Source: Nemertoderma westbladi
Taxonomy: Eukaryota; Animalia; Xenacoelomorpha
Reading direction: 5' to 3'
DNA: 64,000 nucleotides
Assembly (NCBI GenBank): GCA_032718475.1
Contig: JAUCBJ010001551.1
Coordinates: 83,495 to 147,494 of the forward strand
Under the pieces are notes generated by a model. That model made no database searches and was not told the DNA's origin. It saw nothing but the letters and a program-made list of their open reading frames with translations. The position numbers and the translations under genes are program-made. How positions within the stretch are numbered: the first letter of the stretch is position 1; each line of letters opens with the position of its first letter. Shown in pieces: positions 6,833 through 57,098 of the stretch.

Positions 6833-7377
6833 CAACAGTCGGGCCTACCGGTACTACTGTCTTAACAGTCGGGCCTACCGGTACTACTGTCTTAACAGTC
6901 GGGCCTACCGGTACTACTGTCTTAACAGTCGGGCCTACCGGTACTACTGTCTTAACAGTCGGGCCTACCGGTACTACTGTCTTAACAGTCGGGCCTAGGG
7001 GTACTACTGTCTTAACAGTCGGGCCTAGGGGTACTACTGTGTTAACAGTCGGGCCTACCGGTACTACTGTCTTAACAGTCGGGCCTACCGGTACTACTGT
7101 CTTAACAGTCGGGCCTAGGGGTACTACTGTCTTAACAGTCGGGCCTAGGGGTACTACTGTGTTAACAGTCGGGCCTACCGGTACTACTGTCTTAACAGTC
7201 GGGCCTACCGGTACTACTGTCTTAACAGTCGGGCCTACCGGTACTACTGTCTTAACAGTCGGGTCTACCGGTACTACTGTCTTAACAGTCGGGCCTACCG
7301 GTACTACTGTCTTAACAGTCGGGCCTACCGGTACTACTGTCTTAACAGTCGGGCCTACCGGTACTACTGTCTTAACA
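6833..7377. repeat. 30-bp intronic minisatellite (AACAGTCGGGCCTACCGGTACTACTGTCTT), about 18 copies
   Basis: Direct periodicity; lies between Hippo exons 2 and 3. Confidence 0.97.
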
Positions 7378-7759: not shown

Positions 7760-10700
7760 CTACTATTGTTATTTTGTTGCTGGTATGGGTTAATTGTTAT
7801 TGGTTACTGGTATATTGGATAATTGTTATTGGTTACTGGTATATGTTAATTGATATTGGTTACTGGTATTTGTTAATTGTTATTGGTTACTGGTATGGGT
7901 TAATTGTTATTGGTTACTGGTATGGGTTAATTGTTATTGGTTACTGGTATATTGGATAATTGTTATTGGTTACTGGTATGTTGGTTAATTGTTATTGGTT
8001 ACTGGTATATGTAAATTAATTATTATTGGTTACTGGTATAGGTTAATTGTTATTTTGTTGCTGGTATGGGTTAATTGTTATTGGTTACTGGTATATGTTA
8101 ATTGATATTGGTTACTGGTATTTGTTAATTGTTATTGGTTACTGGTATGGGTTAATTGTTATTGGTTACTGGTATGGGTTAATTGTTATTGGTTACTGGT
8201 ATATTGGATAATTGTTATTGGTTACTGGTATATGTTATTCGTTATTGGTTTCTGGTATTATGTTATTCGTTATTGGTTACTGGTATATGTTAATTGTTAT
8301 TGGTTACTGGTATGGGTTAATTGTTATTGGTTACTGGTATATGTTATTTGTTATTGGTTACTGGTATTTGTTAATTGTTATTGGTTGCTGGTATGGGTTA
8401 ATTGTTATTGGTTACTGGTATATGTTAATTGTTATTGGTTACTGGTATGGGTTAATTGCAATTGGTTACTGAGATTAATTGTTATTGGTTGGTATGGTGG
8501 TTAATTGTTATTGGCTGTTAGTATAGGTTAATTGTTATTGGTTACTGGTATGTTGGTTAATTGTTATTGGTTACTGGTATAGGTAAATTAATTATTATTG
8601 GTTACTGGTATAGGTTAATTGTTATTGGTTACTGGTATGGGTTAATTGTAATTGGTTACTGAGATTAATTGTTATTGGTTACTGGTATATGTTAATTGTT
8701 ATTGGTTACTGGTATGGGTTAATTGCAATTGGTTACTGAGATTAATTGTTATTGGTTGGTATGGTGGTTAATTGTTATTGGCTGATAGTATAGGTTAATT
8801 GTTATTGGTTACTGGTATGTTGGTTAATTGTTATTGGTTACTGGTATAGGTAAATTAATTATTATTGGTTACTGGTATAGGTTAATTGTTATTGGTTACT
8901 GGTATGGGTTAATTGTAATTGGTTACTGAGATTAATTGTTATTGGTTACTGGTATATGTTAATTATTATTGGTTACTGGTATAGGTTAATTGTTATTGGT
9001 TACTGAGATTAATTGTTATTGGTTACTGGTATATGTTAATTGTTATTGGTTACTGGTATGGGTTAATTGTAATTGGTTACTGAGATTAATTGTTATTGGT
9101 TACTGGTATATGTTAATTATTATTGGTTACTGGTATAGGTTAATTGTTATTGGTTACTGAGATTAATTGTTATTGGTTACTGGTATACGTTAATTGTTAT
9201 TGGTTACTGGTATGGGTTAATTGTAATTGGTTACTGAGATCAATTGTTATTGGTTACTGGTATGGTGGTTAATTGTTATTGGCTGATGGTATAGGTAAAT
9301 TAATTATTATTGGTTACTGGTATAGGTTAATTGTTATTGGTTACTGAGAATAATTGTTATTGGTTACTGGTATATGTAAATTAATTATTATTGGTTACTG
9401 GTATAGGTTAATTGTTATTGGTTAGTGGTATAGGTTAATTGTTATTGGTTACTGGTATGGATTAATTGTAATTGGTTACTGGTATATGTTAATTGATATT
9501 GGTTACTGGTATAGGTTAATTGTTATTGGTTACTGGTATATGGTAATTGTTATTGGTTACTGGTATATGTTAATTGTTATTGGTTACTGGTATATTGGAT
9601 AATTGTTATTGGTTACTGGTATGGGTTAATTGTAATTGGTTACTGGTATGTTGGTTAATTGTTATTGGCTGATGGTATAGGTAAATTAATTATTAATATT
9701 GGTTACTGGTATAGGTTAATTGTTATTGGTTACTGAGAATAATTGTTATTGGTTATTGGTTACTGGTATATGTTAATTGATATTGGTTACTGGTATAGTT
9801 TAATTGTTATTGGTTACTGGTATATGTTAATTGATATTGGTTACTGGTATATGTTAATTGTTATTGGTTACTGGTATATTTTAATTGTTATTGGTTACTG
9901 TTATATGTTAATTGTTATTGGTTACTGGTATGGGTTAATTGTAATTGGTTACTGAGATCAATTGTTATTGGTTACTGGTATGGTGGTTAATTGTTATTGG
10001 CTGATGGTATAGGTAAATTAATTATTATTGGTTACTGGTATAGGTTAATTGTTATTGGTTACTGAGAATAATTGTTATTGGTTACTGGTATATGTAAATT
10101 AATTATTATTGGTTACTGGTATAGGTTAATTGTTATTGGTTAGTGGTATAGGTTAATTGTTATTGGTTACTGGTATGGGTTAATTGTAATTGGTTACTGA
10201 GATCAATTGTTATTGGTTACTGGTATGGTGGTTAATTGTTATTGGCTGATGGTATAGGTAAATTAATTATTATTGGTTACTGGTATAGGTTAATTGTTAT
10301 TGGTTACTGGTATGGGTTAATTGTAATTGGTTACTGAGATCAATTGTTATTGGTTACTGGTATGGTGGTTAATTGTTATTGGCTGATGGTATAGGTAAAT
10401 TAATTATTATTGGTTACTGGTATAGGTTAATTGTTATTGGTTACTGAGAATAATTGTTATTGGTTACTGGTATATGTAAATTAATTATTATTGGTTACTG
10501 GTATAGGTTAATTGTTATTGGTTAGTGGTATAGGTTAATTGTTATTGGTTACTGGTATGGATTAATTGTAATTGGTTACTGGTATATGTTAATTGATATT
10601 GGTTACTGGTATAGGTTAATTGTTATTGGTTACTGGTATATGGTAATTGTTATTGGTTACTGGTATATGTTAATTGTTATTGGTTACTGGTATGGATTAA

Positions 10701-13700
10701 TTGTAATTGGTTACTGGTATATGTTAATTGATATTGGTTACTGGTATAGGTTAATTGTTATTGGTTACTGGTATATGGTAATTGTTATTGGTTACTGTTA
10801 TATGTTAATTGTTATTGGTTACTGGTATAGGTTAATTGTTATTGGTTACTGGTATGTTGGTTAATTGTTATTGGTTACTGGTATAGGTAAATTAATTATT
10901 ATTGGTTACTGGTATAGGTTAATTGTTATTGGTTAGTGGTATAGGTTAATTGTTATTGGTTACTGGTATGGGTTAATTGTAATTGGTTACTGGTATATGT
11001 TAATTGATATTGGTTAATGGTATAGGTTAATTGTTATTGGTTACTGGTATATGGTAATTGTTATTGGTTACTGGTATATGTTAATTGTTATTGGTTACTG
11101 GTATATTGGATAATTGTTATTGGTTACTGGTATAGGTTAATTGTTATTGGTTACTGGTATATGGTAATTGTTATTGGTTACTGGTATAGGTTAATTGTTA
11201 TTGGTTAATGAGATTAATTGTTATTGGTTATTGGTTACTGGTATATGTTAATTGATATTGGTTACTGGTATAGGTTAATTGTTATTGGTTACTGGTATAG
11301 TTTAATTGTTATTGGTTACTGGTATATGTTATTCGTTATTGGTTTCTGGTATTATGTTATTCGTTATTGGTTACTGGTATATGTTAATTGTTATTGGTTA
11401 CTGGTATATGTTAATTGTTATTGGTTACTGGTATATGTTAATTGTTATTGGTTACTGGTATATGTTATTCGTTATTGGTTTCTGGTATTATGTTATTCGT
11501 TATTGGTTACTGGTATATGTTAATTGTTATTGGTTACTGGTATATGTTAATTGTTATTGGTTACTGGTATATGGTAATAGTTATTGGTTACTGGTTACTG
11601 GTATATGTTAATTGTTATTGGTTACTGGTATTATGTTATTCGTTATTGGTTTCTGGTATTATGTTATTCGTTATTGGTTACTGGTATATGTTAATTGATA
11701 TTGGTTACTGGTTACTGGTATATGTTATTCGTTATTGGTTTCTGGTATTATGTTATTCGTTATTGGTTTCTGGTATTATGTTATTCGTTATTGGTTACTG
11801 GTATATGTTAATTGTTATTGGTTACTGGTATATGTTAATTGTTATTGGTTACTGGTATATGTCAATTATTATTGGTTACTGGTATATGTCAATTATTATT
11901 GGTTACTGGTATATGTTAATTGTTATTGGTTACTGGTATAGTTTAATTGTTATTGGTTACTGGTATATGTTAATTGATATTGGTTACTGGTATAGGTTAA
12001 TTGTTATTGGTTACTGGTATATGTTAATTGTTATTGGTTACTGGTATATTTTAATTGTTATTGGTTACTGGTATATGTTAATTGATATTGGTTTCTGGTA
12101 TATGTTAATTGTTATTGGTTACTGGTATAGTTTAATTGTTATTGGTTACTGGTATATGTTAATTGTTATTGGTTACTGGTATGGGTTAATTGTTATTGGT
12201 TACTGGTATATTTTAATTGTTATTGGTTACTGGTATATGTTAATTGTTATTGGTTACTGGTATGGGTTAATTGTTATTGGTTACTGGTATATTTTAATTG
12301 TTATTGGTTACTGGTATATGTTAATTGATATTGGTTACTGGTATAGGTTAATTGTTATTGGTTACTGGTATATTTTAATTGTTATTGGTTACTGTTATAT
12401 GTTAATTGTTATTGGTTACTGGTATGGGTTAATTGTTATTGGTTACTGGTATATGTTAATTGATATTGGTTACTGGTATGGATTAATTGTAATTGGTTAC
12501 TGGTATAGGTTAATTGTTATTGGTTACTGGTATATTTTAATTGATATTGGTTTCTGGTATATGTTAATTGTTATTGGTTACTGGTATGGGTTAATTGTTA
12601 TTGGTTACTGGTATATGTTATTCGTTATTGGTTTCTGGTATTATGTTATTCGTTATTGGTTACTGGTATATGTTAATTGTTATTGGTTACTGGTATATGT
12701 TAATTGATATTGGTTACTGGTATAGGTTAATTGTTATTGGTTACTGGTATATTTTAATTGTTATTGGTTACTGTTATATGTTAATTGTTATTGGTTACTG
12801 GTATAGGTTAATTGTTATTGGTTACTGGTATATTTTAATTGTTATTGGTTACTGTTATATGTTAATTGTTATTGGTTACTGGTATGGGTTAATTGTTATT
12901 GGTTACTGGTATATGTTAATTGATATTGGTTACTGGTATGGATTAATTGTAATTGGTTACTGGTATAGGTTAATTGTTATTGGTTACTGGTATATTTTAA
13001 TTGATATTGGTTTCTGGTATATGTTAATTGTTATTGGTTACTGGTATGGGTTAATTGTTATTGGTTACTGGTATATGTTATTCGTTATTGGTTTCTGGTA
13101 TTATGTTATTCGTTATTGGTTACTGGTATATGTTAATTGTTATTGGTTACTGGTATATGTTAATTGATATTGGTTACTGGTATAGGTTAATTGTTATTGG
13201 TTACTGGTATATTTTAATTGTTATTGGTTACTGTTATATGTTAATTGTTATTGGTTACTGGTATGGGTTAATTGTTATTGGTTACTGGTATATGTTAATT
13301 GATATTGGTTACTGGTATGGATTAATTGTAATTGGTTACTGGTATAGGTTAATTGTTATTGGTTACTGGTATATTTTAATTGATATTGGTTTCTGGTATA
13401 TGTTAATTGTTATTGGTTACTGGTATGGGTTAATTGTTATTGGTTACTGGTATATGTTATTCGTTATTGGTTTCTGGTATTATGTTATTCGTTATTGGTT
13501 ACTGGTATATGTTAATTGTTATTGGTTACTGGTATATGTTAATTGTTATTGGTTACTGGTATATTTTAATTGTTATTTGTTACTGGTATATTTTAATTGT
13601 TATTGGTTACGGGTATATGTTAATTGATATTGGTTACTGGTATAGTTTAATTGTTATTGGTTACTGGTATATTTTAATTGTTATTTGTTACTGGTATATT

Positions 13701-16700
13701 TTAATTGTTATTGGTTACTGTTATATGTTAATTGATATTGGTTACTGGTATATGTTAATTGTTATTGGTTACTGGTATGGGTTAATTGTTATTGGTTACT
13801 GGTATATGTTAATTGATATTGGTTACTGGTATAGGTTAATTGTTATTGGTTACTGGTATATTTTAATTGATATTGGTTTCTGGTATATGTTAATTGTTAT
13901 TGGTTACTGGTATGGGTTAATTGTTATTGGTTACTGGTATATGTTAATTGATATTGGTTACTGGTATAGGTTAATTGTTATTGGTTACTGGTATATGTTA
14001 TTCGTTATTGGTTTCTGGTATTATGTTATTCGTTATTGGTTACTGGTATATGTTAATTGTTATTGGTTACTGGTATATGTTAATTGTTATTGGTTACTGG
14101 TATATGTTAATTGTTATTGGTTACTGGTATATGTTATTCGTTATTGGTTTCTGGTATTATGTTATTCGTTATTGGTTACTGGTATATGTTAATTGTTATT
14201 GGTTACTGGTATATGTTAATTGTTATTGGTTACTGGTATATGGTAATAGTTATTGGTTACTGGTTACTGGTATATGTTAATTGTTATTGGTTACTGGTAT
14301 ATGTTATTCGTTATTGGTTTCTGGTATTATGTTATTCGTTATTGGTTTCTGGTATTATGTTATTCGTTATTGGTTACTGGTATATGTTAATTGATATTGG
14401 TTACTGGTTACTGGTATATGTTATTCGTTATTGGTTTCTGGTATTATGTTATTCGTTATTGGTTTCTGGTATTATGTTATTCGTTATTGGTTACTGGTAT
14501 ATGTTAATTGTTATTGGTTACTGGTATATGTTAATTGTTATTGGTTACTGGTATATGTCAATTATTATTGGTTACTGGTATATGTCAATTATTATTGGTT
14601 ACTGGTATATGTTAATTGTTATTGGTTACTGGTATAGTTTAATTGTTATTGGTTACTGGTATATGTTAATTGTTATTGGTTACTGGTATATGTCAATTAT
14701 TATTGGTTACTGGTATATGTTAATTGATATTGGTTACTGGTATAGGTTAATTGTTATTGGTTACTGGTATATGTTAATTGTTATTGGTTACTGGTATATT
14801 TTAATTGTTATTGGTTACTGGTATATGTTAATTGATATTGGTTTCTGGTATATGTTAATTGTTATTGGTTACTGGTATATGGTAATTGTTATTGGTTACT
14901 GGTATATGTTAATTGATATTGGTTACTGGTATAGGTTAATTGTTATTGGTTACTGGTATATTTTAATTGTTATTGGTTACTGTTATATGTTAATTGTTAT
15001 TGGTTACTGGTATGGGTTAATTGTTATTGGTTACTGGTATATGTTAATTGATATTGGTTACTGGTATAGGTTAATTGTTATTGGTTACTGGTATATTTTA
15101 ATTGATATTGGTTTCTGGTATATGTTAATTGTTATTGGTTACTGGTATGGGTTAATTGTTATTGGTTACTGGTATATGTTAATTGATATTGGTTACTGGT
15201 ATAGGTTAATTGTTATTGGTTACTGGTATATGTTAATTGATATTGGTTACTGGTATATGTTAATTGTTATTGGTTACTGGTATATTTTAATTGTTATTTG
15301 TTACTGGTATATTTTAATTGTTATTGGTTACTGGTATATGTTAATTGATATTGGTTACTGGTATAGTTTAATTGTTATTGGTTACTGGTATATTTTAATT
15401 GTTATTTGTTACTGGTATATTTTAATTGTTATTGGTTACTGGTATATGTTAATTGATATTGGTTACTGGTATATGTTAATTGTTATTGGTTACTGGTATG
15501 GGTTAATTGTTATTGGTTACTGGTATATGTTAATTGATATTGGTTACTGGTATAGGTTAATTGTTATTGGTTACTGGTATATTTTAATTGATATTGGTTT
15601 CTGGTATATGTTAATTGTTATTGGTTACTGGTATGGGTTAATTGTTATTGGTTACTGGTATATGTTAATTGATATTGGTTACTGGTATAGGTTAATTGTT
15701 ATTGGTTACTGGTATATGTTAATTGATATTGGTTACTGGTATATGTTAATTGTTATTGGTTACTGGTATATTTTAATTGTTATTTGTTACTGGTATATTT
15801 TAATTGTTATTGGTTACTGGTATATGTTAATTGATATTGGTTACTGGTATAGTTTAATTGTTATTGGTTACTGGTATATTTTAATTGTTATTTGTTACTG
15901 GTATATTTTAATTGTTATTGGTTACTGGTATATGTTAATTGATATTGGTTACTGGTATAGGTTAATTGTTATTGGTTACTGGTATATTTTAATTGTTATT
16001 TGTTACTGGTATATTTTAATTGTTATTGGTTACTGGTATATGTTAATTGATATTGGTTACTGGTATAGTTTAATTGTTATTGGTTACTGGTATATGTTAA
16101 TTGTTATTTGTTACTGGTATATTTTAATTGTTATTGGTTACTGGTATATGTTAATTGATATTGGTTACTGGTATAGGTTAATTGTTATTGGTTACTGGTA
16201 TATTTTAATTGTCATTTGTTACTGGTATATTTTAATTGTTATTGGTTACTGGTATATGTTAATTGATATTGGTTACTGGTATAGGTTAATTGTTATTGGT
16301 TACTGGTATATTTTAATTGTTATTTGTTACTGGTATATTTTAATTGTTATTGGTTACTGGTATATGTTAATTGATATTGGTTACTGGTATAGTTTAATTG
16401 TTATTGGTTACTGGTATATTTTAATTGTTATTTGTTGCTGGTATATTTTAATTGTTATTGGTTACTGGTATATGTTAATTGATATTGGTTACTGGTATAG
16501 GTTAATTGTTATTGGTTACTGGTATATTTTAATTGTTATTGGTTACTGGTATATGTTAATTGATGTTGGTTACTGGTATAGTTTAATTGTTATTGGTTAC
16601 TGGTATATGTTAATTGATATTGGTTACTGGTATAGGTTAATTGTTATTGGTTACTGGTATATTTTAATTGTTATTTGTTACTGGTATATTTTAATTGTTA

Positions 16701-17007
16701 TTGGTTACTGGTATATGTTAATTGATATTGGTTACTGGTATAGGTTAATTGTTATTGGTTACTGGTATATTTTAATTGTTATTTGTTACTGGTATATTTT
16801 AATTGTTATTGGTTACTGGTATATGTTAATTGATATTGGTTACTGGTATAGGTTAATTGTTATTGGTTACTGGTATATTTTAATTGTTATTTGTTACTGG
16901 TATATTTTAATTGTTATTGGTTACTGGTATATGTTAATTGATGTTGGTTACTGGTATAGTTTAATTGTTATTGGTTACTGGTATAGGTTATTTGTTATTG
17001 GTCACTG
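7760..17007. repeat. About 9.2-kb, 27-bp intronic satellite (TTAATTGTTATTGGTTACTGGTATATG) with variant units and block duplications
   Basis: Fills almost all of the intron between exons 3 and 4; roughly 340 units. Confidence 0.97.
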
Positions 17008-17458: not shown

Positions 17459-17665
<207 letters not shown>

Positions 17666-17889: not shown

Positions 17890-18075
17890 GGCTGGGAGCC
17901 CCTCCGGTTCGGAGGAAGGGTCCCTCCGGCTGGGAGCCCCTCCGGTTGGGAGCCCCTCCGGCTGCGAGCCCCTCCGGCTGGGAGCCCCTCCGGCTGGGAG
18001 CCCCTCCGGCTGCGAGCCCCTCCGGCTGGGAGCCCCTCCGGCTGGGAGCCCCTCCGGCTGGGAGCCCCTCCGGTT
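17890..18075. repeat. GC-rich 16-bp tandem repeat (GGGAGCCCCTCCGGCT)
   Basis: About 10 direct copies inside the hAT-like element. Confidence 0.9.
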
Positions 18076-18100
18076 CGGAGGCCCATATTCCGGCCCTCTA

Positions 18101-20337: not shown

Positions 20338-20494
20338 GAAGCACCCTAGATATGGGAGGCCTTAGGCCACGGTCTAGCTGGCCTAAGCCTAAATCCGGCT
20401 ATGTCCATCTCCCGACTGCTGATGTGCACCCCCCCCCCCCCCCCCCCCCTCCACATCCAGGATGTTATTTAACAACGAAGCCCCAGCGCTGCAG

Positions 20495-23400
20495 TTTGTT
20501 TTACTTTATTTGTTACTCAGGCCATCTTTATAATCCCCAGTTTGTATTACTTTATTTGTTACCCAGGCCATCTTTATGATCCCCAGTTTGTATTACTTTA
20601 TTTGTTACCCAGGCCATCTTTATAATCCCCAGTTTGTATTACTTTATTTGTTACCCAGGCCATCTTTATGATCCCCAGTTTGTATTACTTTATTTGTTAC
20701 TCAGGCCATCTTTATGATCCCCAGTTTTTATTACTTTATTTGTTACCCAGGCCATCTTTATGATCCCTAGTTTGTATTACTTTATTTGTTACCCAGGCCA
20801 TCTTTATGATCCCCAGTTTGTATTACTTTATTTGTTACTCAGGCCATCTTTATGATCCCCAGTTTGTATTACTTTATTTTTACCCAGGCCATCTTTATGA
20901 TCCCCAGTTTGTATTACTTTATTTGTTACTCAGGCCATCTTTATGATCCCCAGTTTGTATTACTTTATTTTTACCCAGGCCATCTTTATGATCCCCAGTT
21001 TGTATTACTTTATTTGTTACTCAGGCCATCTTTATGATCCCCAGTTTGTATTACTTTATTTTTACCCAGGCCATCTTTATGATCCCCAGTTTGTATTACT
21101 TTATTTGTTACCCAGGCCATCTTTATGATCCCCAGTTTGTATTACTTTATTTGTTACTCAGGCCATCTTTATGATCCCCAGTTTGTATTACTTTATTTGT
21201 TACTCAGGCCATCTTTATGATCCCCAGTTTGTATTACTTTATTTGTTACCCAGGCCATCTTTATGATCCCCAGTTTGTATTACTTTATTTGTTACCCAGG
21301 CCATCTTTATGATCCCCAGTTTGTATTACTTTATTTGTTACTCAGGCCATCTTTATGATCCCCAGTTTGTATTACTTTATTTGTTACTCAGGCCATCTTT
21401 ATGATCCCCAGTTTGTATTACTTTATTTGTTACCCAGGCCATCTTTATGATCCCCAGTTTGTATTACTTTATTTGTTACTCAGGCCATCTTTATGATCCC
21501 CAGTTTGTATTACTTTATTTGTTACCCAGGCCATTTTTATGATACCCAGTTTGTATTACTTTATTTTTACCCAGGCCATCTTTATGATCCCCAGTTTGTA
21601 TTACTTTATTTGTTACCCAGGCCATCTTTATGATCCCCAGTTTGTATTACTTTATTTGTTACTCAGGCCATCTTTATGATCCCCAGTTTGTATTACTTTA
21701 TTTGTTACCCAGGCCATCTTTATGATCCCCAGTTTGTATTACTTTATTTGTTACCCAGGCCATCTTTATGATCCCCAGTTTGTATTACTTTATTTGTTAC
21801 CCAGGCCATCTTTATGATCCCCAGTTTGTATTACTTTATTTGTTACTCAGGCCATCTTTATGATCCCCAGTTTGTATTACTTTATTTGTTACTCAGGCCA
21901 TCTTTATGATCCCCAGTTTGTATTACTTTATTTGTTACCCAGGCCATCTTTATGATCCCCAGTTTGTATTACTTTATTTGTTACTCAGGCCATCTTTATG
22001 ATCCCCAGTTTGTATTACTTTATTTGTTACTCAGGCCATCTTTATGATCCCCAGTTTGTATTACTTTATTTGTTACTCAGGCCATCTTTATGATCCCCAG
22101 TTTGTATTACTTTATTTGTTACCCAGGCCATCTTTATGATCCCCAGTTTGTATTACTTTATTTGTTACTCAGGCCATCTTTATGATCCCCAGTTTGTATT
22201 ACTTTATTTGTTACCCAGGCCATTTTTATGATCCCCAGTTTGTATTACTTTATTTTTACCCAGGCCATCTTTATGATCCCCAGTTTGTATTACTTTATTT
22301 GTTACCCAGGCCATCTTTATGATCCCCAGTTTGTATTACTTTATTTGTTACCCAGGCCATCTTTATGATCCCCAGTTTGTATTACTTTATTTGTTACCCA
22401 GGCCATCTTTATGATCCCCAGTTTGTATTACTTTATTTGTTACCCAGGCTATCTTTATTATCCCCAGTTTGTATTACTTTATTTGTTACCCAGGCCATCT
22501 TTATGATCCCCAGTTTGTATTACTTTATTTGTTACCCAGGCCATCTTTATGATCCCCAGTTTGTATTACTTTATTTGTTACCCAGGCCATCTTTATGATC
22601 CCCAGTTTGTATTACTTTATTTGTTACCCAGGCCATCTTTATGATCCCCAGTTTGTATTACTTTATTTGTTACCCAGGCCATCTTTATGATCCCCAGTTT
22701 GTATTACTTTATTTATTACTCAGGCCATCTTTATGATCCCCAGTTTGTATTACTTTATTTGTTACCCAGGCCATCTTTATGATCCCCAGTTTGTATTACT
22801 TTATTTGTTACTCAGGCCATCTTTATGATCCCCAGTTTGTATTATATTTTATTGGTTACCCAGGCCATCTTTATGATCCCCAGTTTGTATTACTTTATTT
22901 GTTACCCAGGCAGGCCATCTTTATGATCCCCAGTTTGTATTACTTTATTTGTTACCCAGGCAGGCCGGCCATCTTTATGATCCCCAGTTTGTATTACTTT
23001 ATTTGTTACCCAGGCCATCTTTATGATCCCCAGTTTGTATTACTTTATTTGTTACCCAGGCCATCTTTATGATCCCCAGTTTGTATTACTTTATTTGTTA
23101 CCCAGGCCATCTTTATGATCCCCAGTTTGTATTACTTTATTTGATACCCAGGCCATCTTTATGATCCCCAGTTTGTATTACTTTATTTGTTACCCAGGCC
23201 ATCTTTATGATCCCTAGTTTGTATTACTTTATTTGTTACCCAGGCCATCTTTATGATCCCCAGTTTGTATTACTTTATTTGTTACCCAGGCCATCTTTAT
23301 GATCCCTAGTTTGTATTACTTTATTTGTTACTCAGGCCATCTTTATGATCCCCAGTTTGTATTACTTTATTTGTTACCCAGGCCATCTTTATGATCCCTA

Positions 23401-24598
23401 GTTTGTATTACTTTATTTGTTACTCAGGCCATCTTTATGATCCCCAGTTTGTATTACTTTATTTGTTACCCAGGCCATCTTTATGATCCCCAGTTTGTAT
23501 TACTTTATTTGTTACTCAGGCCATCCGTATGATCCCCAGTTTGTATTACTTTATTTGTTACCCAGGCCATCTTTATGATCCCCAGTTTGTATTACTTTAT
23601 TTGTTACCCAGGCCATCTTTATGATCCCCAGTTTGTATTACTTTATTTGTTACCCAGGCCATCTTTATGATCCCCAGTTTGTATTACTTTATTTGTTACC
23701 CAGGCCATCTTTATGATCCCCAGTTTGTATTACTTTATTTGTTACCCAGGCCATCTTTATCATCCCCAGTTTGTATTACTTTATATGTTACCCAGGCCAT
23801 CTTTATGATCCCCAGTTTGTATTACTTTATTTGTTACCCAGGCCATCTTTATTATCCCCAGTTTGTATTACTTTGTTTGTTACCCAGGCCATCTTTATGA
23901 TCCCCAGTTTGTATTACTTTATTTGTTACCCAGGCCATCTTTATGATCCCCAGTTTGTATTACTTTATTTGTTACCCAGGCCATCTTTATGATCCCCAGT
24001 TTGTATTACTTTATTTGTTACCCAGGCCATCTTTATGATCCCCAGTTTGTATTACTTTATTTGTTACTCAGGCCATCTTTATGATCCCCAGTTTGTATTG
24101 CTTTATTTGTTACTCAGGCCATCCGTATGATCCCCAGTTTGTATTACTTTATTTGTTACCCAGGCCATCTTTATGATCCCCAGTTTGTATTACTTTATTT
24201 GTTACTCAGGCCATCTTTATGATCCCCAGTTTGTATTGCTTTATTTGTTACTCAGGCCATCCGTATGATCCCCAGTTTGTATTACTTCATTTGTTACCCA
24301 GGCCATCTTTATGATCCCCAGTTTGTATTGCTTTATTTGTTACTCAGGCCATCCGTATGATCCCCAGTTTGTATTACTTTATTTGTTACCCAGGCCATCT
24401 TTATGATCCCCAGTTTGTATTACTTTATTTGTTACCCAGGCCATCTTTATGATCCCCAGTTTGTATTACTTTATTTGTTACTCAGGCCTTCTTTATGATC
24501 CCCAGTTTGTATTACTTTATTTATTACCCAGGCCATCTTTATGATCCCCAGTTTGTATTAATTTATTTGTTACTCAGGCCATCTTTATGATCCCCAGT
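20495..24598 (+). repeat. 46-bp tandem array made of the exon-6 splice acceptor plus the first 20 nt of exon 6, about 89 copies
   Basis: Unit tttgtattactttatttgttacycag|GCCATCTTTATGATCCCCAG; the last copy runs into the real exon (AIFMIPSKPPP). Confidence 0.97.
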
Positions 24599-24715
24599 AA
24601 ACCTCCACCTGTGTTAACTGATCGCGACAAATGGTCAAATGAGTTTAACGATTTCTTATCGAAATGTTTGGTAAAAGACCAAGACGATCGAAGTACAGCT
24701 ACAATGCTGTTACAG
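24578..24715 (+). CDS. STK3/STK4: Hippo/MST kinase exon 6
   Basis: actcag|GCC ATC TTT ATG ATC CCC AGT AAA CCT...TTA CAG|gtattt; AIFMIPSKPPPVLTDRDKWSNEFNDFLSKCLVKDQDDRSTATMLLQ; 138 nt. Confidence 0.95.
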
Positions 24716-25597: not shown

Positions 25598-25702
25598 CAT
25601 CCATTCGTTCGGAATGCCAAATCACCCACCCAGTCATTGACGGCAATGCTAAATGAAGCTCGACTCGTTAAAGAAACATTATCTAACCAATCAGACGAAT
25701 CG
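25598..25702 (+). CDS. STK3/STK4: Hippo/MST kinase exon 7
   Basis: tcacag|CAT CCA TTC GTT...GAA TCG|gtgagt; HPFVRNAKSPTQSLTAMLNEARLVKETLSNQSDES; 105 nt. Confidence 0.9.
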
Positions 25703-26506
25703 GTGAGTATAAAGAAGCATTATCTAACCAATCAGACGAATCGGTGAGTATAAAGAAATATTATCTAACCAATCAGACGAAATCGGTGAGTATAAAGAAA
25801 TATTATCTAACCAATCAGACGAATCGATGAGTTTAAATAAATATTATCTAACCAATCAGACGAATCGGTGAGTATAAAGAAATATTATGTAACCAATCAG
25901 ATGAATCAGTGAGTTTAAATAAATATTATCTAACCAATCAGACGAATCGGTGAGTATAAAGAAATATTATCTAACCAATCAGATGAATCGGTGAGTTTAA
26001 ATAAATATAATCTAACCAATCAGATGAATCGGTGAGTTTAACGAAACATTATCTAACCAATCAGACGAATCGATGAGTTTAAATAAATATTATCTAACCA
26101 ATCAGATGAATCGGTGAGTTTAACGAAACATTATCTAACCAATCAGACGAATCGATGAGTTTAAATAAATATTATCTAACCAATCAGACGAATCGGTGAG
26201 TATAAAGAAATATTATGTAACCAATCAGATGAATCAGTGAGTTTAAATAAATATTATCTAACCAATCAGACGAATCGGTGAGTATAAAGAAATATTATCT
26301 AACCAATCAGATGAATCGGTGAGTTTAAATAAATATAATCTAACCAATCAGATGAATCGGTGAGTTTAACGAAACATTATCTAACCAATCAGACGAATCG
26401 ATGAGTTTAAATAAATATTATCTAACCAATCAGATGAATCGGTGAGTTTAACGAAACATTATCTAACCAATCAGACGAATCGGTGGGTATTAAGAAATAT
26501 TATCTC
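25670..26506 (+). repeat. 41-bp tandem array made of the last 33 nt of exon 7 plus the splice donor, about 20 copies
   Basis: Unit AAAGAAACATTATCTAACCAATCAGACGAATCG|gtgagtat; the first copy is the coding exon end. Confidence 0.95.
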
Positions 26507-30090: not shown

Positions 30091-31179
30091 ATGGTATATT
30101 ATTACTTTTGGTTTTTATTTAGGTGACAGTGGTACAGTTGTTGTAATGGTATATTATTAGTTTTGGTTTTTATTTAGGTGACAGTGGTACACAGTTGTCA
30201 TGGTATATTATTACTTTTGGTTTTTAAATAGGTGACAGTGGTACAGTTGTTCTAATGGTATATTATTAGTTTTGGTTTTTATTTAGGTGACAGTGGTACA
30301 GTTGTTGTAATGGTATATTATTACTTTTGGTTTTTATTTAGGTGACAGTGGTACAGTTGTTGTAATGGTATATTATTACTTTTGGTTTTTATTTAGGTGA
30401 CAGTGGTACAGTTGTTGTAATGGTATATTATTACTTTTGGCTTTTATTTAGGTGACAGTGGTACAGTTGTTGTAATGGTATATTATTAGTTTTGGTTTTT
30501 ATTTAGGTGACAGTGGTACACAGTTGTCATGGTATATTATTACTTTTGGTTTTTATTTAGGTGACAGTGGTACAGTTGTTGTAATGGTATATTATTACTT
30601 TTGGTTTTTAAATAGGTGACAGTGGTACAGTTGTTGTAATGGTATATTATTACTTTTGGTTTTTATTTAGGTGACAGTGGTACAGTTGTTGTAATGGTAT
30701 ATTATTACTTTTGGTTTTTATTTAGGTGACAGTGGTACAGTTGTTGTAATGGTATATTATTACTTTTGGTTTTTATTTAGGTGACAGTGGTACAGTTGTA
30801 ATGGTATATTATTACTTTTGGTTTTTATTTAGGTGACAGTGGTACAGTTGTTGTAATGGTATATTATTAGTTTTGGTTTTTATTTAGGTGACAGTGGTAC
30901 ATTTGTTGTAATGGTATATTATTACTTTTGGTTTTTATTTAGGTGACAGTGGTACAGTTGTAATGGTATATTATTACTTTTGGTTTTTATTTAGGTGACA
31001 GTGGTACAGTTGTTGTAATGGTATATTATTACTTTTGGTTTTTATTTAGGTGACAGTGGTACAGTTGTTGTAATGGTATATTATTACTTTTGGTTTTTAT
31101 TTAGGTGACAGTGGTACAGTTGTAATGGTATATTATTACTTTTGGTTTTTATTTAGGTGACAGTGGTACAGTTGTTGTA
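30091..31179 (+). repeat. 55-bp (some 52-bp) tandem array made of the exon-10 acceptor plus exon start, about 20 copies
   Basis: Unit ggtatattattacttttggtttttatttag|GTGACAGTGGTACAGTTGTTGTAAT; the last copy continues as the exon. Confidence 0.95.
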
Positions 31180-38034: not shown

Positions 38035-38389
38035 GCTCATGTATCCGGCCTACACTGGCTGACTGATTAGGTTACGGTACCGGCGTTACCTACTCAACCT
38101 ACTGAGTTCGTCCCTTTCTGGCAGTCTGGTTAATGACAGAATGAATTGCTGTACCGTAGCCTTCTGTCTGTCTGTCTGTCTGTAGGCCTATACCGGTACT
38201 GCTACACTGTCTGACTGTGTTATAATCCTCCATCCAATTCCTTGTATCCTTGTATTGTGTATTCTCTGTATCCCGGTATTAAAAAACAAACAAAAACAAA
38301 TGTTAAATAGCCTAAACGGTACCGGTAACTGAGTTTAGCACACCATCACCAATTTGAACAAACTACCGGGACCCGTAGTTGATTTTGTT

Positions 38390-39490
38390 ATGGAAGCTGC
38401 GGCGCAAACGCAACAGCAACATATTTATAACCGCTCAGGATTCTATGTTACCGAACTCAATAAAACGGTATTCGAGGTTCCTGATCGTTACCAAAACCTC
38501 ATGCCCATCGGTTCCGGTGCCTACGGGACTGTCTGCAGTGCCGTCAACACCGAAACGGGAAAAAACGTCGCCATTAAAAAATTATCGCGCCCCTTCCAAA
38601 CGCTGGTCCACGCAAAAAGAACCTACAGAGAACTGAGACTTCTAAAACACTTCCATCATGACAATGTTATTCAGCTTATGGGCGTGTTCACCCCTGCAAC
38701 CAATCTGGCGGAGTTTCAAGACGTTTACTTCGTGACAGACCTAATGGGAGCCGACCTAGCCAACATTATAAAGTACCAAGAGTTAAGCGATGACCACATT
38801 CAGTTCCTAACCTACCAGATAATGCGTGGACTCAAACACGTCCACAGTGCCGGTATTCTACATCGGGACCTCAAGCCCTCGAACATCGCCGTCAATGAAG
38901 ATTGCGAACTCCGTATCCTGGACTTCGGGTTGGCCCGGATGTCGGACGACTCCATGACGGGCTACGTAGCCACCCGCTGGTACCGTGCTCCGGAGATAAT
39001 GCTAAACTGGATGCACTACAGCGAGACGGTGGATGTCTGGAGCGTCGGCTGCATAATGGCCGAGATGCTGACGCGACGGACGCTGTTCCCGGGGATCGAC
39101 GCGATCGACCAGCTCGAGAAGATCCTCGACCTGGTCGGGACGCCGGACGCGGCCTTCCTCTCGCGGATGTCCTCCGCCGAGGCGCGTCGCTACATCGAGT
39201 CGATGACGTCTCGCCCCGGCCGCCCCTTCACGCAGTTCTTCCAGAGCGCCAACCCAGACGCAGTGGATCTGCTCGCCCGCATGCTGGTTCTGGATCCTCG
39301 GGATAGGATCACAGCGGCCGGCGCCTTGGAGCATCCCTACCTGCAGCAGTACCACGACCCGTCCGACGAGCCGGACAGCGAGCCCTTCGTCGCCTCCTTC
39401 GAGAACCTCCAGACCTCCTCCATAGCCGAGTGGAGCGCGATGGTTTATAGCGAGGTGGTTGATTACGAGGATCGCGATAGGGGCGCATAG
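38390..39490 (+). CDS. MAPK14: p38 MAP kinase (MAPK14-like), intronless, 366 aa from the first ATG
   Basis: [33 protein letters not shown] activation motif ([17 protein letters not shown]) and CD domain YHDPSDEP. The ORF-track start at 38354 is TTG; the first ATG is at 38390. Confidence 0.96.
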
Positions 39491-41867: not shown

Positions 41868-43667
41868 TTACGTCATCATTGTTACTGTAACTTTAGGAAT
41901 ATCAAATTGTTTAGAATCTTGGCTGGTTAACTTCTGACACGATTGCTTTGCTTTTTGTATGGCTGCAACCCAGGCTCCAGCCTGTCTGCTATTAGCGGTC
42001 TGAACTGTAAATACCTCTTCAGGTATCCTATACGTTGTGTTGCTGTACACCAAAAGGAATGTACTCTTATCTTGGAGTTCGTGCAAATGGAGCTGATTCA
42101 ATATCATTAAGGGTTTAAGTAGTTTTATTTTGTCGTCCCGTTTGGTACTTTTAGAAACTAGGAAAATATCGGTAAATAAATAGCCATAGGATTCAACCTT
42201 TCTGGTACCCTCTTTGATTTTAAATGGGCCATCCATTAAAATCTTGCGTTTTTTCCGCGTGTTTGGGATGGGGTTGATTAAATTAAGTGCGGGATATCTT
42301 TTCACAATATCACAAACCTCATCGCTATAATCAATAATGTTTGGGTAAGATTCAATCTGGGAATTCAATTTCCTCAACACGTGTAACTCTTCATTATTAT
42401 TAACCTCTTCATTAACTTTACCGATAAATACATTAACTTCACTAACAATGTTCTCTAGTATCGAATATTCATCTTTGGTCGCCAATTTTCCCTGCATTGT
42501 CTTTAGTAAAAGGGGATACTTAGTAAGTCTTTGCATTGGTTTAACCATCATATCCGATAGCAGTAGTCTATTACATTCGGGCCAGGATTCGCCCCATTCC
42601 ACAAATCGTTTAAATATTTCGTTTTCATTGTAACACATTTTCATGTATTCAATGCTGCTCTGAGCTTGTATACCTTGTTCTATGTAGGGTTGGAAATTAA
42701 TTTCGAATTTCTTAAACAATTCAGCAATGAGAATGGCGTCGACACAATTACCTGTCTCGCGACTAACTTCCACTATTTTCTTCATATTAGTCCAGAGATT
42801 AATGTGACACTTCCTCACATCCCTCATATTACTAAAAAGTACTATAGTATCTACTTCCCGCAGTATATTTTGTGAATGCAAATGTTCTAGTGGAGACAAA
42901 AATAGATTAATTATTACATCTAAATGTCGAATATGCGAGGATTCTGTTGTGAACAATTCCCAAAGAACGGATTGTTGGGTAAACAGTCTCTTACTAAGGT
43001 TGCTGGCATCCTCCACAATATCGGCCCAGTCACCAGCTACGCGCGTATCCATTGGCGCATCAGGCGTATCAAACATTTCATCTGAACTTCGCGAATTCAC
43101 AGCTTTGAAGTTGTTCAGCAGAAGTTCCAAATGTTTAATTTCCTGCTGCTGCGAGTTTGTCGTTGACGATGTTGCTTTGCTTTTTTCCTTTACACCCGAG
43201 GAACCCTTTGAGAAGAGCCGACGTCTCGCTATAGTTGATATAGAGTTGGACCTAATCTTTGATCTTTGTGGTCCTATTGCTAAATCAGCGACTGATACTG
43301 CCCTCCTTCCATGGGAGGAGTAGGTATGTAGCATGTACAGATTATTTGGATTTATCAGAGAATCATAATAAGTAACTTGTGAAATATCGGAGCATGAATT
43401 ATACCTCCGATGGCTGGAGTTCGATTCAACTACAACATCTGCTTTCTTATAAATATTATAAGTGGGTGACCCACTCAATTGGCTTGGCACGCTATCCCAT
43501 TTATCCATCACCCCCCTGCTGGAAGGTTCGGTGCATTGATTATTCGCAATGTTGGTGGATTTTTCATGATTTGGTATCTCGCACCCTATAGCAGAAACCC
43601 TGCAGGTTGGTAAGGAGCTTATCAGCCAAAATACAGAAGCCAATACGTAAATGAACGCGGCATACAT
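41868..43667 (-). CDS. Dbl-family RhoGEF (DH-PH), PLEKHG5/6/7-like; true N-terminus uncertain
   Basis: DH motifs QQSVLWELFTTESSHIRHL and LSDMMVKPMQRLTKYPLLL, followed by a PH domain (YGYLFTDIFLVSK...WVAAIQKA). Confidence 0.9.
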   Translation of the reverse strand: MYAAFIYVLASVFWLISSLPTCRVSAIGCEIPNHEKSTNIANNQCTEPSSRGVMDKWDSVPSQLSGSPTYNIYKKADVVVESNSSHRRYNSCSDISQVTYYDSLINPNNLYMLHTYSSHGRRAVSVADLAIGPQRSKIRSNSISTIARRRLFSKGSSGVKEKSKATSSTTNSQQQEIKHLELLLNNFKAVNSRSSDEMFDTPDAPMDTRVAGDWADIVEDASNLSKRLFTQQSVLWELFTTESSHIRHLDVIINLFLSPLEHLHSQNILREVDTIVLFSNMRDVRKCHINLWTNMKKIVEVSRETGNCVDAILIAELFKKFEINFQPYIEQGIQAQSSIEYMKMCYNENEIFKRFVEWGESWPECNRLLLSDMMVKPMQRLTKYPLLLKTMQGKLATKDEYSILENIVSEVNVFIGKVNEEVNNNEELHVLRKLNSQIESYPNIIDYSDEVCDIVKRYPALNLINPIPNTRKKRKILMDGPFKIKEGTRKVESYGYLFTDIFLVSKSTKRDDKIKLLKPLMILNQLHLHELQDKSTFLLVYSNTTYRIPEEVFTVQTANSRQAGAWVAAIQKAKQSCQKLTSQDSKQFDIPKVTVTMMT

Positions 43668-46600: not shown

Positions 46601-49600
46601 AAAGTGTTATGAGTAATAAAAATAATGACGTTTCCATTGACAGTTTTGTTTCTAGATCAATAAGTGATATACACGGACAAACAAACCATTGGTGTGACAA
46701 TACAGCTGACACCGGACAAACAGAAGAACATTAGGATGTACACAATGGTGTAAATAGCAATATGATTCACATTTTTGAAAATTACAGTATACATAATTAT
46801 AATAATAATACCAGTAACATTAGTAATCTAACAGCAGCGGGAAGCGACCAAGGTAGGGGTCGACGGAACACAGCCGATGATGAACGGCGAGTTGAGCCTA
46901 ATAGGCAAGGTTATGAAGGGAATGCACAAAGCAACATCAACTGCAATCCAACAATGAATGCGACCAGCATGCAACAGCAAACCTTGGGAATGGCTTCGCA
47001 TATAGATGCACTAAAGACCAGGATAGAGTTGCCAGCAGTCAAACCTTTATAAGTTCAATGGTGGTAAACCAAAGGAGTACATCCAGTTCAGAAGAATGTA
47101 CAGTAACGAAATTTTATCAAAGAAATTAACCCAAGCAGAGTGTCTGAAATACCTTATAAACTAATATTAGTTATTCACAGCGGGACTAGCCTACGAAATA
47201 GTGCGATAACACCAAGCCATCGAGGGAGGATTTTTTGCTGCATGGGATGTGTTAGATAGCGAATATGGACAGCCAGCAAAAATAATATGGCAAACACTGA
47301 AAACAATAACAATGACATCAGTAGCGGATAGTCCAACTAACATAAAAAGATTCGCAAATAAAATAAAGAAAGCACTTTTTACACTAAAAACACTTGAAAC
47401 ACCATATAAGTTGAACTCATCCCAGAACGTACTCATGGTAGTTGAAGCACTACCAAAGTGGATTAGGAATAAGTGGAGGGAAGAAGGATTCAAGACACAA
47501 GATTGGTAGTAGTTATCGTATATTAAAATATTGTAGTAGTTCCGTGGACAGAGACGGGATGTATTCATCAGGAGTTCATAGAGGAAGTTCAGGTGAACAG
47601 GGCAGAAACAGGTATAGCTCGGGATATCAAGGAAGGAACTACAGCAGCAACCTTCAATTTAGAATGCAAAGAGAGGATCTGAAGAGAGGTAGACTGAACA
47701 TTCCATAGAGCAACATGTTAAATACATTAAAATGAGATACATGATACATCAAACTGTACAGAATGGAAGGCTATACAGCAAACGAGAGACACATTTATAC
47801 ATCGCGATAAAACTTGTGCCACAATTGTGTGAACAGAGGACATATGGAAGATTCATGTACATTTGGAATACCAAAGATGGAAACTGGATGAAATAATAAC
47901 ATAGGAACTGCGATGGGAGAGGAAAAGGAGCAAAGTACAGTGTTTCTCAGAGTAGTAACTGGGAAGATTCGTGGTGTAGATGATAAATCGGTAACTATGC
48001 CAATGTTGATAGATAGCGGTGCTGCATTTACACTAACTGAAAAATTAATAGCGGACAGAATAGGACTGATAACAAGGACAAGCGAGCGACATGGCTGTTA
48101 CAACTATAACTACTAAAGATGAAGTAGTAAGGATAACTACTAAAGATGAAGTAGTGAGGATGATGGTAGGACAGTGCATGATTGAGTCTATCATGCCAGG
48201 ATATAGATTCTCAGAGAAATGCAATCCTTTAGGATAACACAAATACTTAACATCAATGCAAGGAGGCCCACTATTTCAGAAACAGGCAATTATAAACACC
48301 TTAGTGGCAAGATTTCAGGATACCGTATCTCGATGTACCGAAATTGTTGTTAATATTTGGAATGGACTGCCTAACTGTTCACAATAGAATAAAGGTAGTA
48401 TTTGAGGAGAAAGGGTCTGGTGATCCCATTGCAGTATTAACACCTTTCGGGTGGACACTAAGTGGACAGTTAGCTCGGGAAGAAAGACAAATACATCCAT
48501 GCAATACAGATGTATGTCGGCAATGACTGAGACAATGGAACAAGGATTGGAGAGACATCTACAGGAGTTAATCCAAATGGACACGGAGGGTATAAAAGAT
48601 ACAAAGAGAGGAATATCAGTGGAAGATAAAGAAGCTATGCGGATGGTAAAAGAGAGCATGAAGTGTGAGAATGGTAGATATACGATAGGAATGGCATGGA
48701 AGAAGCTGAAGAACCCCCTACCAAACCACAGGAGAATGGTAGTGACACGATTAAAGAAGTTAAAGCAAACCTCACAAAAATCAAGGAGAAAAGTGAATAT
48801 CTCCATAGAACCAAAAGGAAATATGTAGAGAAGGGGTGGGCAGTGGAACTACCTGCAGATGAACCAGATATGGACCAAACTTATTATCTACTGTTATACA
48901 TCGCAGTAGATGCAAGAAAAGGTAATAAGCTAACAATGGTAGTAAATGCAGTCACGAAGACAGACGAGGTAGCATTGAATGATTACCTTCTGGAAGGACA
49001 GAACATCACTACAGCAGTATATAAGTATTAATAGGTTCGGGAACATATTTTGTATTCATATGCGACATTGAGCGCATGTTTAATCAGGTATTAGTAATGA
49101 AAGAAGCCAGTGAAGTCAGTGGTTTTTGTGGTATAATGGTGATGTAGACCCGGCTGTGATACCAAGCTATAAGATGGTAGTTCACAATATGGGAGCAAAA
49201 TGTTCTTCATATACCACCATTACTGCAATACAGAACACTACCAAAGGAAAAGAACGACATATACAGTCTGAAAGCCATAGAAATGATTCAAAAGGGATTG
49301 TATGTTGATGATGGGATAGGGTCATGAAACACAGTAGTAGCAACCATCAACTTGGCTCGCAAAGTTTGATATATTGAAAGGGCGAGGATTTAACATAATA
49401 AAGTTTAAATCAAACTCAACAGAGTTCGTGGAGGCCATGGGTGATGGCATCGAAGGAGCAGCATCAGAGAAGGCAAAGTTGGTACTGTTGAACAGTAAGG
49501 AAAAGTTAGCAGCTGACAAAAGATATCAGCTGGTACAAAGAGCCTTAGGAATAAAATGGAACAGAGAGACCAACATGCTAGAATATCAATTCACACATGT

Positions 49601-49946
49601 GGGACACGATATAAACACGAAAAGAGGGTAACTTTCATACATTACGATCCTTTAGGACTCGCATCACCATTGTTGGTGATAGGAAAACAAATCCTGAAGA
49701 AAGTATACTGATTAAAGGATGGGTGGGACGAACAAGTGCTGGAAGAGATTGCAAAGGAGTGGAAAATCTGGACTGCGAGTATACAAGAAATGGGAAAGAT
49801 TATGATGCCGAGAGCTTACTTCCCAGGTGGCAGGATGGAATACCTAGAACTGCATATGTTCGGAGATGCATTGCTTGAGGCGTATGGGGCGGCGCTATAT
49901 ATCGTACAACGGGGCAGGGATAGGTACACTCGACTGATCTTTAGTA

Positions 49947-51340
49947 CTACTACTACTACTACTACTAGGATCGGCATGCTGCATTGCAGCTGCATTTTTA
50001 AGAATGCTGTGCCGGCTTGTCAACAAAATTGCACCGCCACAACTCCCTATCACCCATGACATTTGCTAGATCATCCGCATCTTTAAGGCCAGTGTCCATT
50101 AAGATGCGTCTCAAGAAAGTCATGGGCTGTCCACCATGCTTATTCACTCCATGAGGCTGCCAAAGTACAAGATTATGCACTGGCTGGTCCTCACGGCGAA
50201 AGCAATGTCCTGCAAAGCGGAGGCGATTTTGTTCTAGTGTCAAGCTTGGGGGAACCAATGAGACACCTCCAATGTTATATAGTGTCTGGTTGGAGATGTG
50301 TGCATTGTACTTGACACAATGAACCCGGCGTAGCATTCTTGTGAATGTGCCATCCAGAGATTTGGTGTCCTCAGCAGTTAGAGCCCAGCATGGACTCCCG
50401 TAGAGGAGTACTGGAACTACTGCTGCTCTAAATAATCGGATCTTAAGTTTCCGATTAATTCTCGGTGACTTCCAAATCCTGGAAAGCCTATTCAAGGCTG
50501 CCCATGCCTTTCCCTTACGTATTCGAAGGTCCTCACCTGACTTCCGGATCCATGATCCCAGGTAACAGAAGTCGTCCACATGCTCAAGCATACCATCCTT
50601 TGAGCTTATGCTCATCCGATCAGAGACTTGCTGAGGACTTTCAAAGTTAACTGTCAGAATTTTGGTCTTTCTGGAGTTAATAAAAAGACCAACACTAGAA
50701 GCAGCATGTTCTAATGAGCTGAGGAGCCGTTGGGCTCCCTCTAATGATTCTGAGAGTACTCCTAAGTCATCAGCAAAGTCTAGATCAGTTAGGTACTTGG
50801 CAGGATTTCCTCGACTTCTGGAGCCAGTAGGTGGAGTTATCATCACCCCATCATCATTATGATGATCTAAGGACATGCGTAGAACATAGTCAACCACAAT
50901 AATGAACAAGAATGGTGCAAGTGTGTCTCCTTGGAGGACGCCCCATAACACTTCAAATGGTTCTGTGTCACCGTCAACAGTAGACACAAATGTTGTCGAA
51001 CCATCGTATACTGATCTGATTGCTGCAATAATTTCATCAGGAATCCCATATAATGAAAGTATGCTGAACATACGTGAGCGAGAGACTGAATCAAAGGCCT
51101 TGAAGAAGTCAACAAAGATAACAGCCAGATGCCTGTCTTTCTTTTTTGATAATTCTTCAATTATCCTTCTAAGTGCCAAAATGGGCTCCATGGTCCCACG
51201 ACCTTTACGGAACCCATTCTGATTTCCACGGAGCAGTCTCTCAATGGGATCCCTGATGCGATTTAATAGAATCCTATTGTATAGCTTTGCAGCAATCGAG
51301 ATCAATGAGATTCCCCGAAAAGAACCGTAGAGTGCATGTA
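49947..51340 (-). mobile_element. 5'-truncated RTE-like LINE inserted in the BEL element, with an open RT frame (49998-51305)
   Basis: QNGFR, FVDFFKAFDSV, GVLQGDTLAPFLF, FADD, YLG motifs; (TAG)n tail; 11-bp TSD GATCTTTAGTA (49936-49946, 51341-51351). Removing it restores BEL LIFSKAR. Confidence 0.93.
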
Positions 51341-52039
51341 GATCTTTAGTAAGGCCAGGTCGACACCAGGAAATTCACTAGGAGTGCCGAAATTAGAGTT
51401 GATGGTTGCACGCATAAGGATGAGGGTGGCGGCATACATAGCAGATGGTATGTCGACAGTGAAGGAAATCTTTTATTGGACTGATTCAATGGCCGTAATG
51501 GGAAGGTTGACAAACGAGGAAACGAGACTTAGATTGTTTATTGCGAATAGAGTGGACGAGATACAAGAGATATCTAACATTGACAACTGGAAACACTGCC
51601 CAACAGGAGACAATCCAGCAGACCTATAGTCAAGAGGAGTAAACAAATGATTCTTTGAAGACAAAGAGGACTTCTGGCAGCACGGTCTGAAGTTTCTTAA
51701 TAACAAAGATTTGTGGCTGGAAAACATCAAGGAAGACAAAACGAAGGAGAGCATGGAAGTAAAGGAAAGTGCGAGTGAGGTATACATTGAAGATGGTGAC
51801 AACACATTGATGCTAAGTGAGGTGACGACAGGGTGGAAGGTAAAAGATACACACTTTACAACACTGGAGGGACATACAAACCCAACAGATAGGTTGCTGG
51901 AATATAATTCCAGTTGGTACAAGTCCAGATTTATGTGGCGTACTACTGAGCATTCGGGGAGTTCTTGAAAAGTAAAACCAAGGGTGCACAAATAAAACCA
52001 AGAATAGATCTAAACACGGCAGAAACACTAATATTGGTT

Positions 52040-52316
52040 GATGAATGGGGGTATCTTTTAGGCTCGTTAAGCCAAGGAATGCCTGTTTACCACCATGGGT
52101 GATCTTCCACAGTAAACCCTTCCCCTCTGTTTCCCATGTTCCCTTGGTTCCTATTTATCAACCACTGAAGGATGAAAGCCAGGGTTGGGCTAAGCTGCTG
52201 CATTTAAAGCACTGCGCCCAAATAGTGCTGCCCCATCTAGGGATCGAACCAGGGCTCCCTAAATAGAAGCCCAGGAATTTCACCACTAGACCAAGCTGCT
52301 GCTATATTGTTATAAC
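52040..52316 (-). mobile_element. Full-length tRNA-derived SINE
   Basis: Reverse complement has A-box TGGTCTAGTGG and B-box GGTTCGATCC; flanked by AATATTGGTT direct repeats; homologous to 3699-4746. Confidence 0.88.
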
Positions 52317-55300: not shown

Positions 55301-55367
55301 TTGTACGCACGTATTGGCTTATCTAATGTTAACGAAACGGAAATAAAGATGTACAAAAATATAAATT

Positions 55368-55441
55368 TACCAACTGAGATTTGAACCCTCGACCTATCGT
55401 ACGCACGACCTACACGCTAACCTACCAGGCCACTGGACCAA
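55368..55441 (-). pseudogene. Degenerate tRNA-like sequence
   Basis: Reverse complement has TGGCCTGGTAGG and GGTTCAAATC boxes at tRNA spacing; stems imperfect. Confidence 0.4.
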
Positions 55442-56877: not shown

Positions 56878-57022
56878 CATTGCGGCAGAAAATGGCTTGT
56901 TATGTCTGCTAAAGCACCTACACGGTACATTGCGGAGAAAATGGCTTGTTATGTCCGCTAAAACACCTACACGGTATATCGCGGAGAAGATGACTTGTTA
57001 TATCCACAAAAGCTTTTACACC
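56878..57022. repeat. About 50-bp diverged tandem repeat x3
   Basis: GCGGAGAAAATGGCTTGTTATGTCCGCTAAA...ACACGGTA repeated. Confidence 0.75.
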
Positions 57023-57098
57023 GCTCCCAGAAAATGGGATTTAATTCTATAAAATATAAAAAATCACAGTTTCTAAAATATAAAAATACTCTAAACAG

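Follow-up and report, generated by a model that had tools for sequence, protein, structure and literature searches.

Tandem repeats that span exon–intron boundaries are known from amphioxus as 'mirages'. They occur in Adh3, troponin C, the globins BflGb6 and BflGb9 and PGBD5, where, according to the available portions of the reports, the AG and GT signals are kept and a normal mRNA is made (PMC3087553, PMC3902484). The available text also has the boundary units of mirages excluded from homogenisation (PMC3087553). For the 37-bp VNTR in IVS7 of the human F7 gene, the accessible part of the report describes mutagenesis showing that position, and not strength, picks among identical donors, and that stronger pseudo-sites do not compete (PMC1557585). 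Human CBS c.844_845ins68 carries a duplicated intron/exon junction, of which the distal copy is strongly preferred while the mRNA is normal, as stated in the available text (PMC2630376).

We analysed a 64,000-nt stretch of the genome of the xenacoelomorph Nemertoderma westbladi (contig JAUCBJ010001551.1, positions 83,495 to 147,494, hereafter the window), in which a gene assigned by sequence similarity to STK3/STK4 carries 89 tandem copies of a 46-bp unit across one of its acceptors. This array is a large further example of the mirage repeat type. As in the available descriptions from amphioxus, its unit spans an exon–intron boundary, the splice signals are kept, and the exon-adjacent sites of three arrays are those used in an assembled mRNA contig. 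It differs in copy number (89 copies, against 3–7 in the globins and PGBD5 in the same descriptions), in the presence of three mirages in one gene, and in a branch-point-like change private to the working copy, a feature that the accessible parts of the amphioxus reports do not describe. The F7 VNTR, in which only the exon-adjacent site of a minisatellite of identical sites is used, is from its available description a direct parallel of a 41-bp donor array in the same STK3/4 gene; however, it concerns donors, has 5–9 copies and was examined with minigenes, whereas the question in STK3/4 concerns acceptors and is known from sequence and a single contig. The CBS insertion, as far as its available description goes, shares the preference for the copy beside the intact exon, but has only two copies. 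In the Creative Commons literature we found no report of a private branch point that marks the working copy of a duplicated acceptor.

On balance, we favour the reading that this is a mirage minisatellite whose host mRNA takes the last of 89 acceptors, likely because that copy is the only one adjoining an intact exon and its donor, and that the private adenosine of this copy, at position 24561 (A24561), is probably a late change, which may serve as a branch point and is likely unneeded for the choice.

Gene context and organisation of the array

A tblastn search with an STK3 protein placed exons between 6672 and 31534 that run from its kinase domain through to its C-terminal segment, with four coding exons ahead of the exon that follows the 46-bp array. 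The latter exon (24578–24715, forward strand; 138 nt, phase 0) corresponds to the end of the kinase domain, has STK3/STK4 as its best PDB matches (E 3e-12) and shows 67% identity to an STK3 protein. Judged by sequence similarity, the host gene is an STK3/STK4 (MST/Hippo) kinase, with a predicted STE20 kinase domain and a C-terminal region similar to that of MST. A single Hippo gene thus holds three splice-site arrays, namely a 46-bp acceptor array, a 41-bp donor array and a 55-bp acceptor array. Its introns contain other repeats as well: about 340 copies of a 27-bp repeat with a strong G/T strand skew (7765–17007) fill a 9.3-kb intron, and two further arrays (6834–7377 and 17922–18084) do not reach the splice sites.

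The remainder of the window holds an intronless p38 MAPK open reading frame (38387–39490, forward strand), at most 69% identical to animal MAPK14/11 among the 120 listed proteins and possibly a retrocopy. A frame of 599 codons without a stop lies at 41868–43667 on the reverse strand, and we take it to resemble a DH-PH RhoGEF. Broken frames on both strands extend across 46700–63800; these are presumably retroelement-like, and the one at 49998–51374 (reverse strand) is presumably reverse-transcriptase-like.

The 46-bp array occupies 20492..24598 of the forward strand. Alignment of its units, with the array cut at the unit start, gives 89 units starting at 20493..24550, and TRF gives 89.1 copies. 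Each unit consists of the last 28 nt of the intron followed by the first 18 nt of the next exon, and the acceptor heptamer is kept in 89/89 units. Either edge of the array carries a CAGT microhomology. The units (20493–24598) can also be read as 19 exon-like bases plus a 27-nt GT..AG stretch, which is unused in the major mRNA. We rejected a reading of each unit as a micro-intron of 27 nt, with which the mRNA would lose its frame, and the contig fits the simple use of the last acceptor.

Splice sites used in the major mRNA

Evidence on the mRNA comes from a single assembled, spliced contig of 1396 nt in run X4 (labelled 'DNA?'), and such a contig is blind to minor or decayed isoforms. In this contig the upstream exon (17492..17659, forward strand) is joined straight to 24578, and the transcript then continues into the exon at 25598. 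The exon 24578–24715 corresponds to positions 579–716 of the record, and the acceptor AG in use (24576..24577, forward strand) is the last of the 89. The expectation that about 89 acceptors precede the exon, and that the one in use is the last, beside the true exon, was therefore borne out for the major mRNA. Further downstream, the exon start at 31157 falls at position 1063 of the record of an X4 contig of the same length and depth, and follows the end of the 29906 exon. The 346 nt that separate exon 24578–24715 from the 31157 exon in the record equal 105+142+99, an exon-length arithmetic that matches use of the first donor and of the last acceptors. Taken from this one contig, the major mRNA is thus spliced at the last acceptor in the 46-bp array, at the first donor in the 41-bp array and at the last acceptor in the 55-bp array.

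At position 31536, within the last coding exon, the X4 contig and the window are not identical, and the mRNA sample may likewise depart from the window at 24561. The window and run X1 have T at 31536 and runs X2, X3 and X4 have C, so this exon is polymorphic among the samples.

Use of the nearest decoys of the 46-bp array would yield exons of 184, 230 and 276 nt, which are still of normal size. In each of the two acceptor arrays, all 6 upstream acceptors tested lead to an early stop, and decay could hide mis-splicing since the products of these acceptors would reach such stops. A24561 also creates an in-frame TAA (24559–24561) for a transcript spliced at the penultimate acceptor, which would stop after 9 codons; that product is frameshifted anyway.

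A private adenosine in the last unit

At column 12 of the 46-bp unit, 87 of the 89 copies have C. Unit 52, an indel variant, has T, and the last unit alone has A, at 24561 on the forward strand. This A lies 16 nt upstream of the acceptor G at 24577, that is, at −17, as a candidate branch adenosine. It completes a TTAAT at 24558, the only occurrence of this motif in the whole array, and no AG is present between it and the acceptor (24562–24575). The original prediction had noted both the privacy of the A and the YTNAY match that it creates, and the alignment of all units confirms the two points, with no further copy of the A upstream.

Private changes are not restricted to the last unit. They are present in 12/89 units, including the first unit and 10/87 inner ones, and the private T of the 5′-edge unit (20500, forward strand) creates a YTNAY of its own (TTTAC, at −18) on a decoy. 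At column 12, which lies near the array edge, this 5′-most unit has C like the rest. All assembled contigs from runs X1 (1), X2 (11) and X3 (1) that cover 24561 read C; none of them reached the unique exon, and they are evidence neither way on A24561, since contigs collapse repeats and drop rare variants. The depths of the collapsed repeat contigs differ between runs, and such depth is no measure of copy number.

The U2-type branch-point motif is YTNAY, and human branch points generally lie at −20..−40 from the acceptor (PMC9636908, available text). TTAAT fits this motif, with no AG before the acceptor, but its A at −17 falls outside the general human range as given in that source; the range of the host organism itself may differ. 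The other YTRAY sites of the STK3/4 gene sit at −25..−38, a range that does not include −17 either. The heptamer TATTAAT (24556..24562, forward strand) is predicted to form 6/6 pairs (4 Watson–Crick and 2 wobble) with the U2 motif, the only heptamer to do so when 88 acceptors of the array were scored; at about −0.3 kcal/mol, compared with −2.6 for the consensus heptamer, the duplex is nonetheless predicted to be weak. That a branch-point match sets the last copy apart stands for the stricter YTRAY, present in 1/89 copies (the last), and for U2 pairing, but not for YTNAY as such, which occurs in 89/89 copies at −12..−45 and in 85/89 at −15..−45. Within −15..−32, YTNAY is found in three copies (acceptors 20520, 20750 and 24577), so that two decoys, too, have a private YTNAY in this range.

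We also asked how easily chance could produce such a change. The 44 nt upstream of the acceptor allow 132 single substitutions, of which 1 leads to full U2 pairing (A24561 itself), 5 lead to YTRAY and 15 to any improvement. At the singleton rate of the inner units (10/87) the nominal p is about 0.001–0.013, and it becomes 0.008–0.11 on the assumption that some private change is present in the terminal unit, both values being post hoc and uncorrected for the many arrays and signals that a reader could choose. Enrichment of YTRAY was not found at the other acceptors of the gene (5/9, against 3.9 expected by shuffling, P=0.34; background 114/328 windows), and YTRAY is not established as the branch consensus of the host. 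RNA structure as a selector found no support in three 137-nt windows, which fold no better than their shuffles (z 0.5–1.5).

Sister arrays in the same gene

The 55-bp acceptor-spanning array (30091..31179, forward strand; 20 acceptors, of which the last, at 31156, is used) serves as an internal control. Its working copy is without a private SNV; counting this copy itself, 13/20 copies are identical over 31 nt and 3/20 over 50 nt. A change equivalent to A24561 (C>A at −18) is possible in this array, yet absent. Its sole YTRAY is a private CTAAT (30252..30256, forward strand; C30252) on the fourth copy, with the A at −32 from the decoy acceptor 30286, a usual branch-point distance, and the contig skips this copy. 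Branch-point-making singletons therefore arise on decoys too; this decoy is an imperfect control, because it carries an additional AG and lies a long way from the donor. Each 55-bp unit, too, admits a reading with a GT..AG stretch, here of 29 nt after about 26 bases, which goes unused in the major mRNA.

In the 41-bp donor-spanning array (25668..26505, forward strand; 20 donor-like sites), exon-length arithmetic indicates use of the first donor, after 25702. The sequence of this donor over −6..+12 is found in 6/20 sites, itself included, that is, in 5 of the 19 downstream donors. As the 55-bp acceptor array and the 41-bp donor array both use their exon-adjacent copy unmarked, a private mark is not required for correct site choice in this gene. 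In the 46-bp and 41-bp arrays each end unit has a private SNV, and in the 55-bp and 30-bp arrays neither end unit does, so the edge effect on private SNVs is uneven across the arrays of the window.

What selects the last acceptor

Exon definition is an established principle of splicing, and it may account for the choice. The decoys have only 18–20 exon bases each and meet no good donor until 24716, from which we infer that exon definition would favour the copy beside the intact exon. The array itself may have originated by a microhomology-bounded duplication, as the CAGT at both of its edges suggests, with slippage or unequal exchange thereafter. Nonsense-mediated decay would remove whatever transcripts the nearest decoys give rise to (exons of 184, 230 and 276 nt, all with early stops). 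The terminal units would escape homogenisation, allowing private changes to persist there, and since the 5′-edge unit has C together with a private change of its own, a late C>A in the last unit appears at least as parsimonious as an ancestral A. In CBS 844ins68 the mechanism is reported to involve G-runs and hnRNP H. For the STK3/4 array, exon-adjacent position likely selects the site, and A24561 is probably at most a helper. In favour of position are the wide distribution of YTNAY, the location of the A at −17, the unmarked sister arrays and the presence of a private SNV in both terminal units of the 46-bp array. What speaks against a view based on position only is that A24561, the single best of 132 changes for U2 pairing, lies exactly on the working copy.

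This last point is the core of the best-surviving alternative, which we consider rather unlikely: position would set the basic preference, and A24561 would be the branch point in use, gained or kept by selection for the wider margin that it gives the last acceptor over the nearest two or three decoys, with duplications that carry the A upstream being purged. The A does give the only YTRAY in 89 copies, without an intervening AG before the acceptor, and the nearest decoys, whose exons of 184–276 nt are within normal size and contain stops, are the competitors over which such a margin would count. Moreover, 37 nt separate column 12 of the last unit from the array edge, so that exchange could overwrite or copy it, yet the A is unique. 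Against such a role stand the weakness of the predicted U2 duplex, the nearness of −17 to the acceptor, the YTRAY count at the other acceptors, which is close to that expected, and the 55-bp array, left unmarked though the equivalent change is available to it. The pressure for a mark could, however, be greater in the 46-bp array, which is 4.5 times longer than this control.

Less probable still is that A24561 arose as an error in the assembly consensus, or as a change that is somatic or confined to one haplotype, and that its branch-point look is a coincidence singled out afterwards. The private SNVs in 10/87 inner units are at the level expected of rare mutation or residual repeat error. A random error would, however, be just as unlikely to improve the motif (1–15 of 132 changes), the array is otherwise clean, and there is no homopolymer at 24561.

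The strongest version of the idea, in which it is A24561 that decides which one of 89 acceptors is licensed, while the decoys are silent through a homogenised branch-point-weak version, draws on the uniqueness and U2 complementarity of the A, but is very improbable, given that the correct site is chosen in two sister arrays that bear no mark, that YTNAY or NTNAY motifs are kept in all 89 copies, that the 5′-edge unit has C, and that mirages in other systems are, in the available text, reported to splice normally. The proposal that one nucleotide tells the spliceosome which acceptor to use is not supported, in view of the exon-adjacent choice in the unmarked 55-bp and 41-bp arrays and of the private CTAAT on a skipped decoy. 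Its companion, the spread of a branch-point-weak version through the decoys, would need an ancestral A, whereas the C of the 5′-most unit makes a late change at least as parsimonious; the decoys, moreover, keep YTNAY. A single-nucleotide licence is not needed to explain the splicing of the STK3/4 array.

Implications

That three arrays in one gene each resolve to the exon-adjacent site points to position as the general rule. A more far-reaching proposal, which we put forward only tentatively and think unlikely to hold, is that splice-site minisatellites of great length come to carry a 'licence' mutation under selection: a branch point would be gained or retained by the working copy, with the decoys being purged of it. 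If this were true, splicing fidelity would act as a position-specific filter on concerted evolution, and the array would be a one-nucleotide natural experiment that sets branch-point strength against 88 near-identical competitors. Should A24561 prove to be both selected and functional, this would show that selection on splicing is able to keep a unit distinct, by one base, within an array undergoing homogenisation, and the STK3/4 gene of N. westbladi would offer a clean test of position versus branch-point strength in 3′ splice-site choice.
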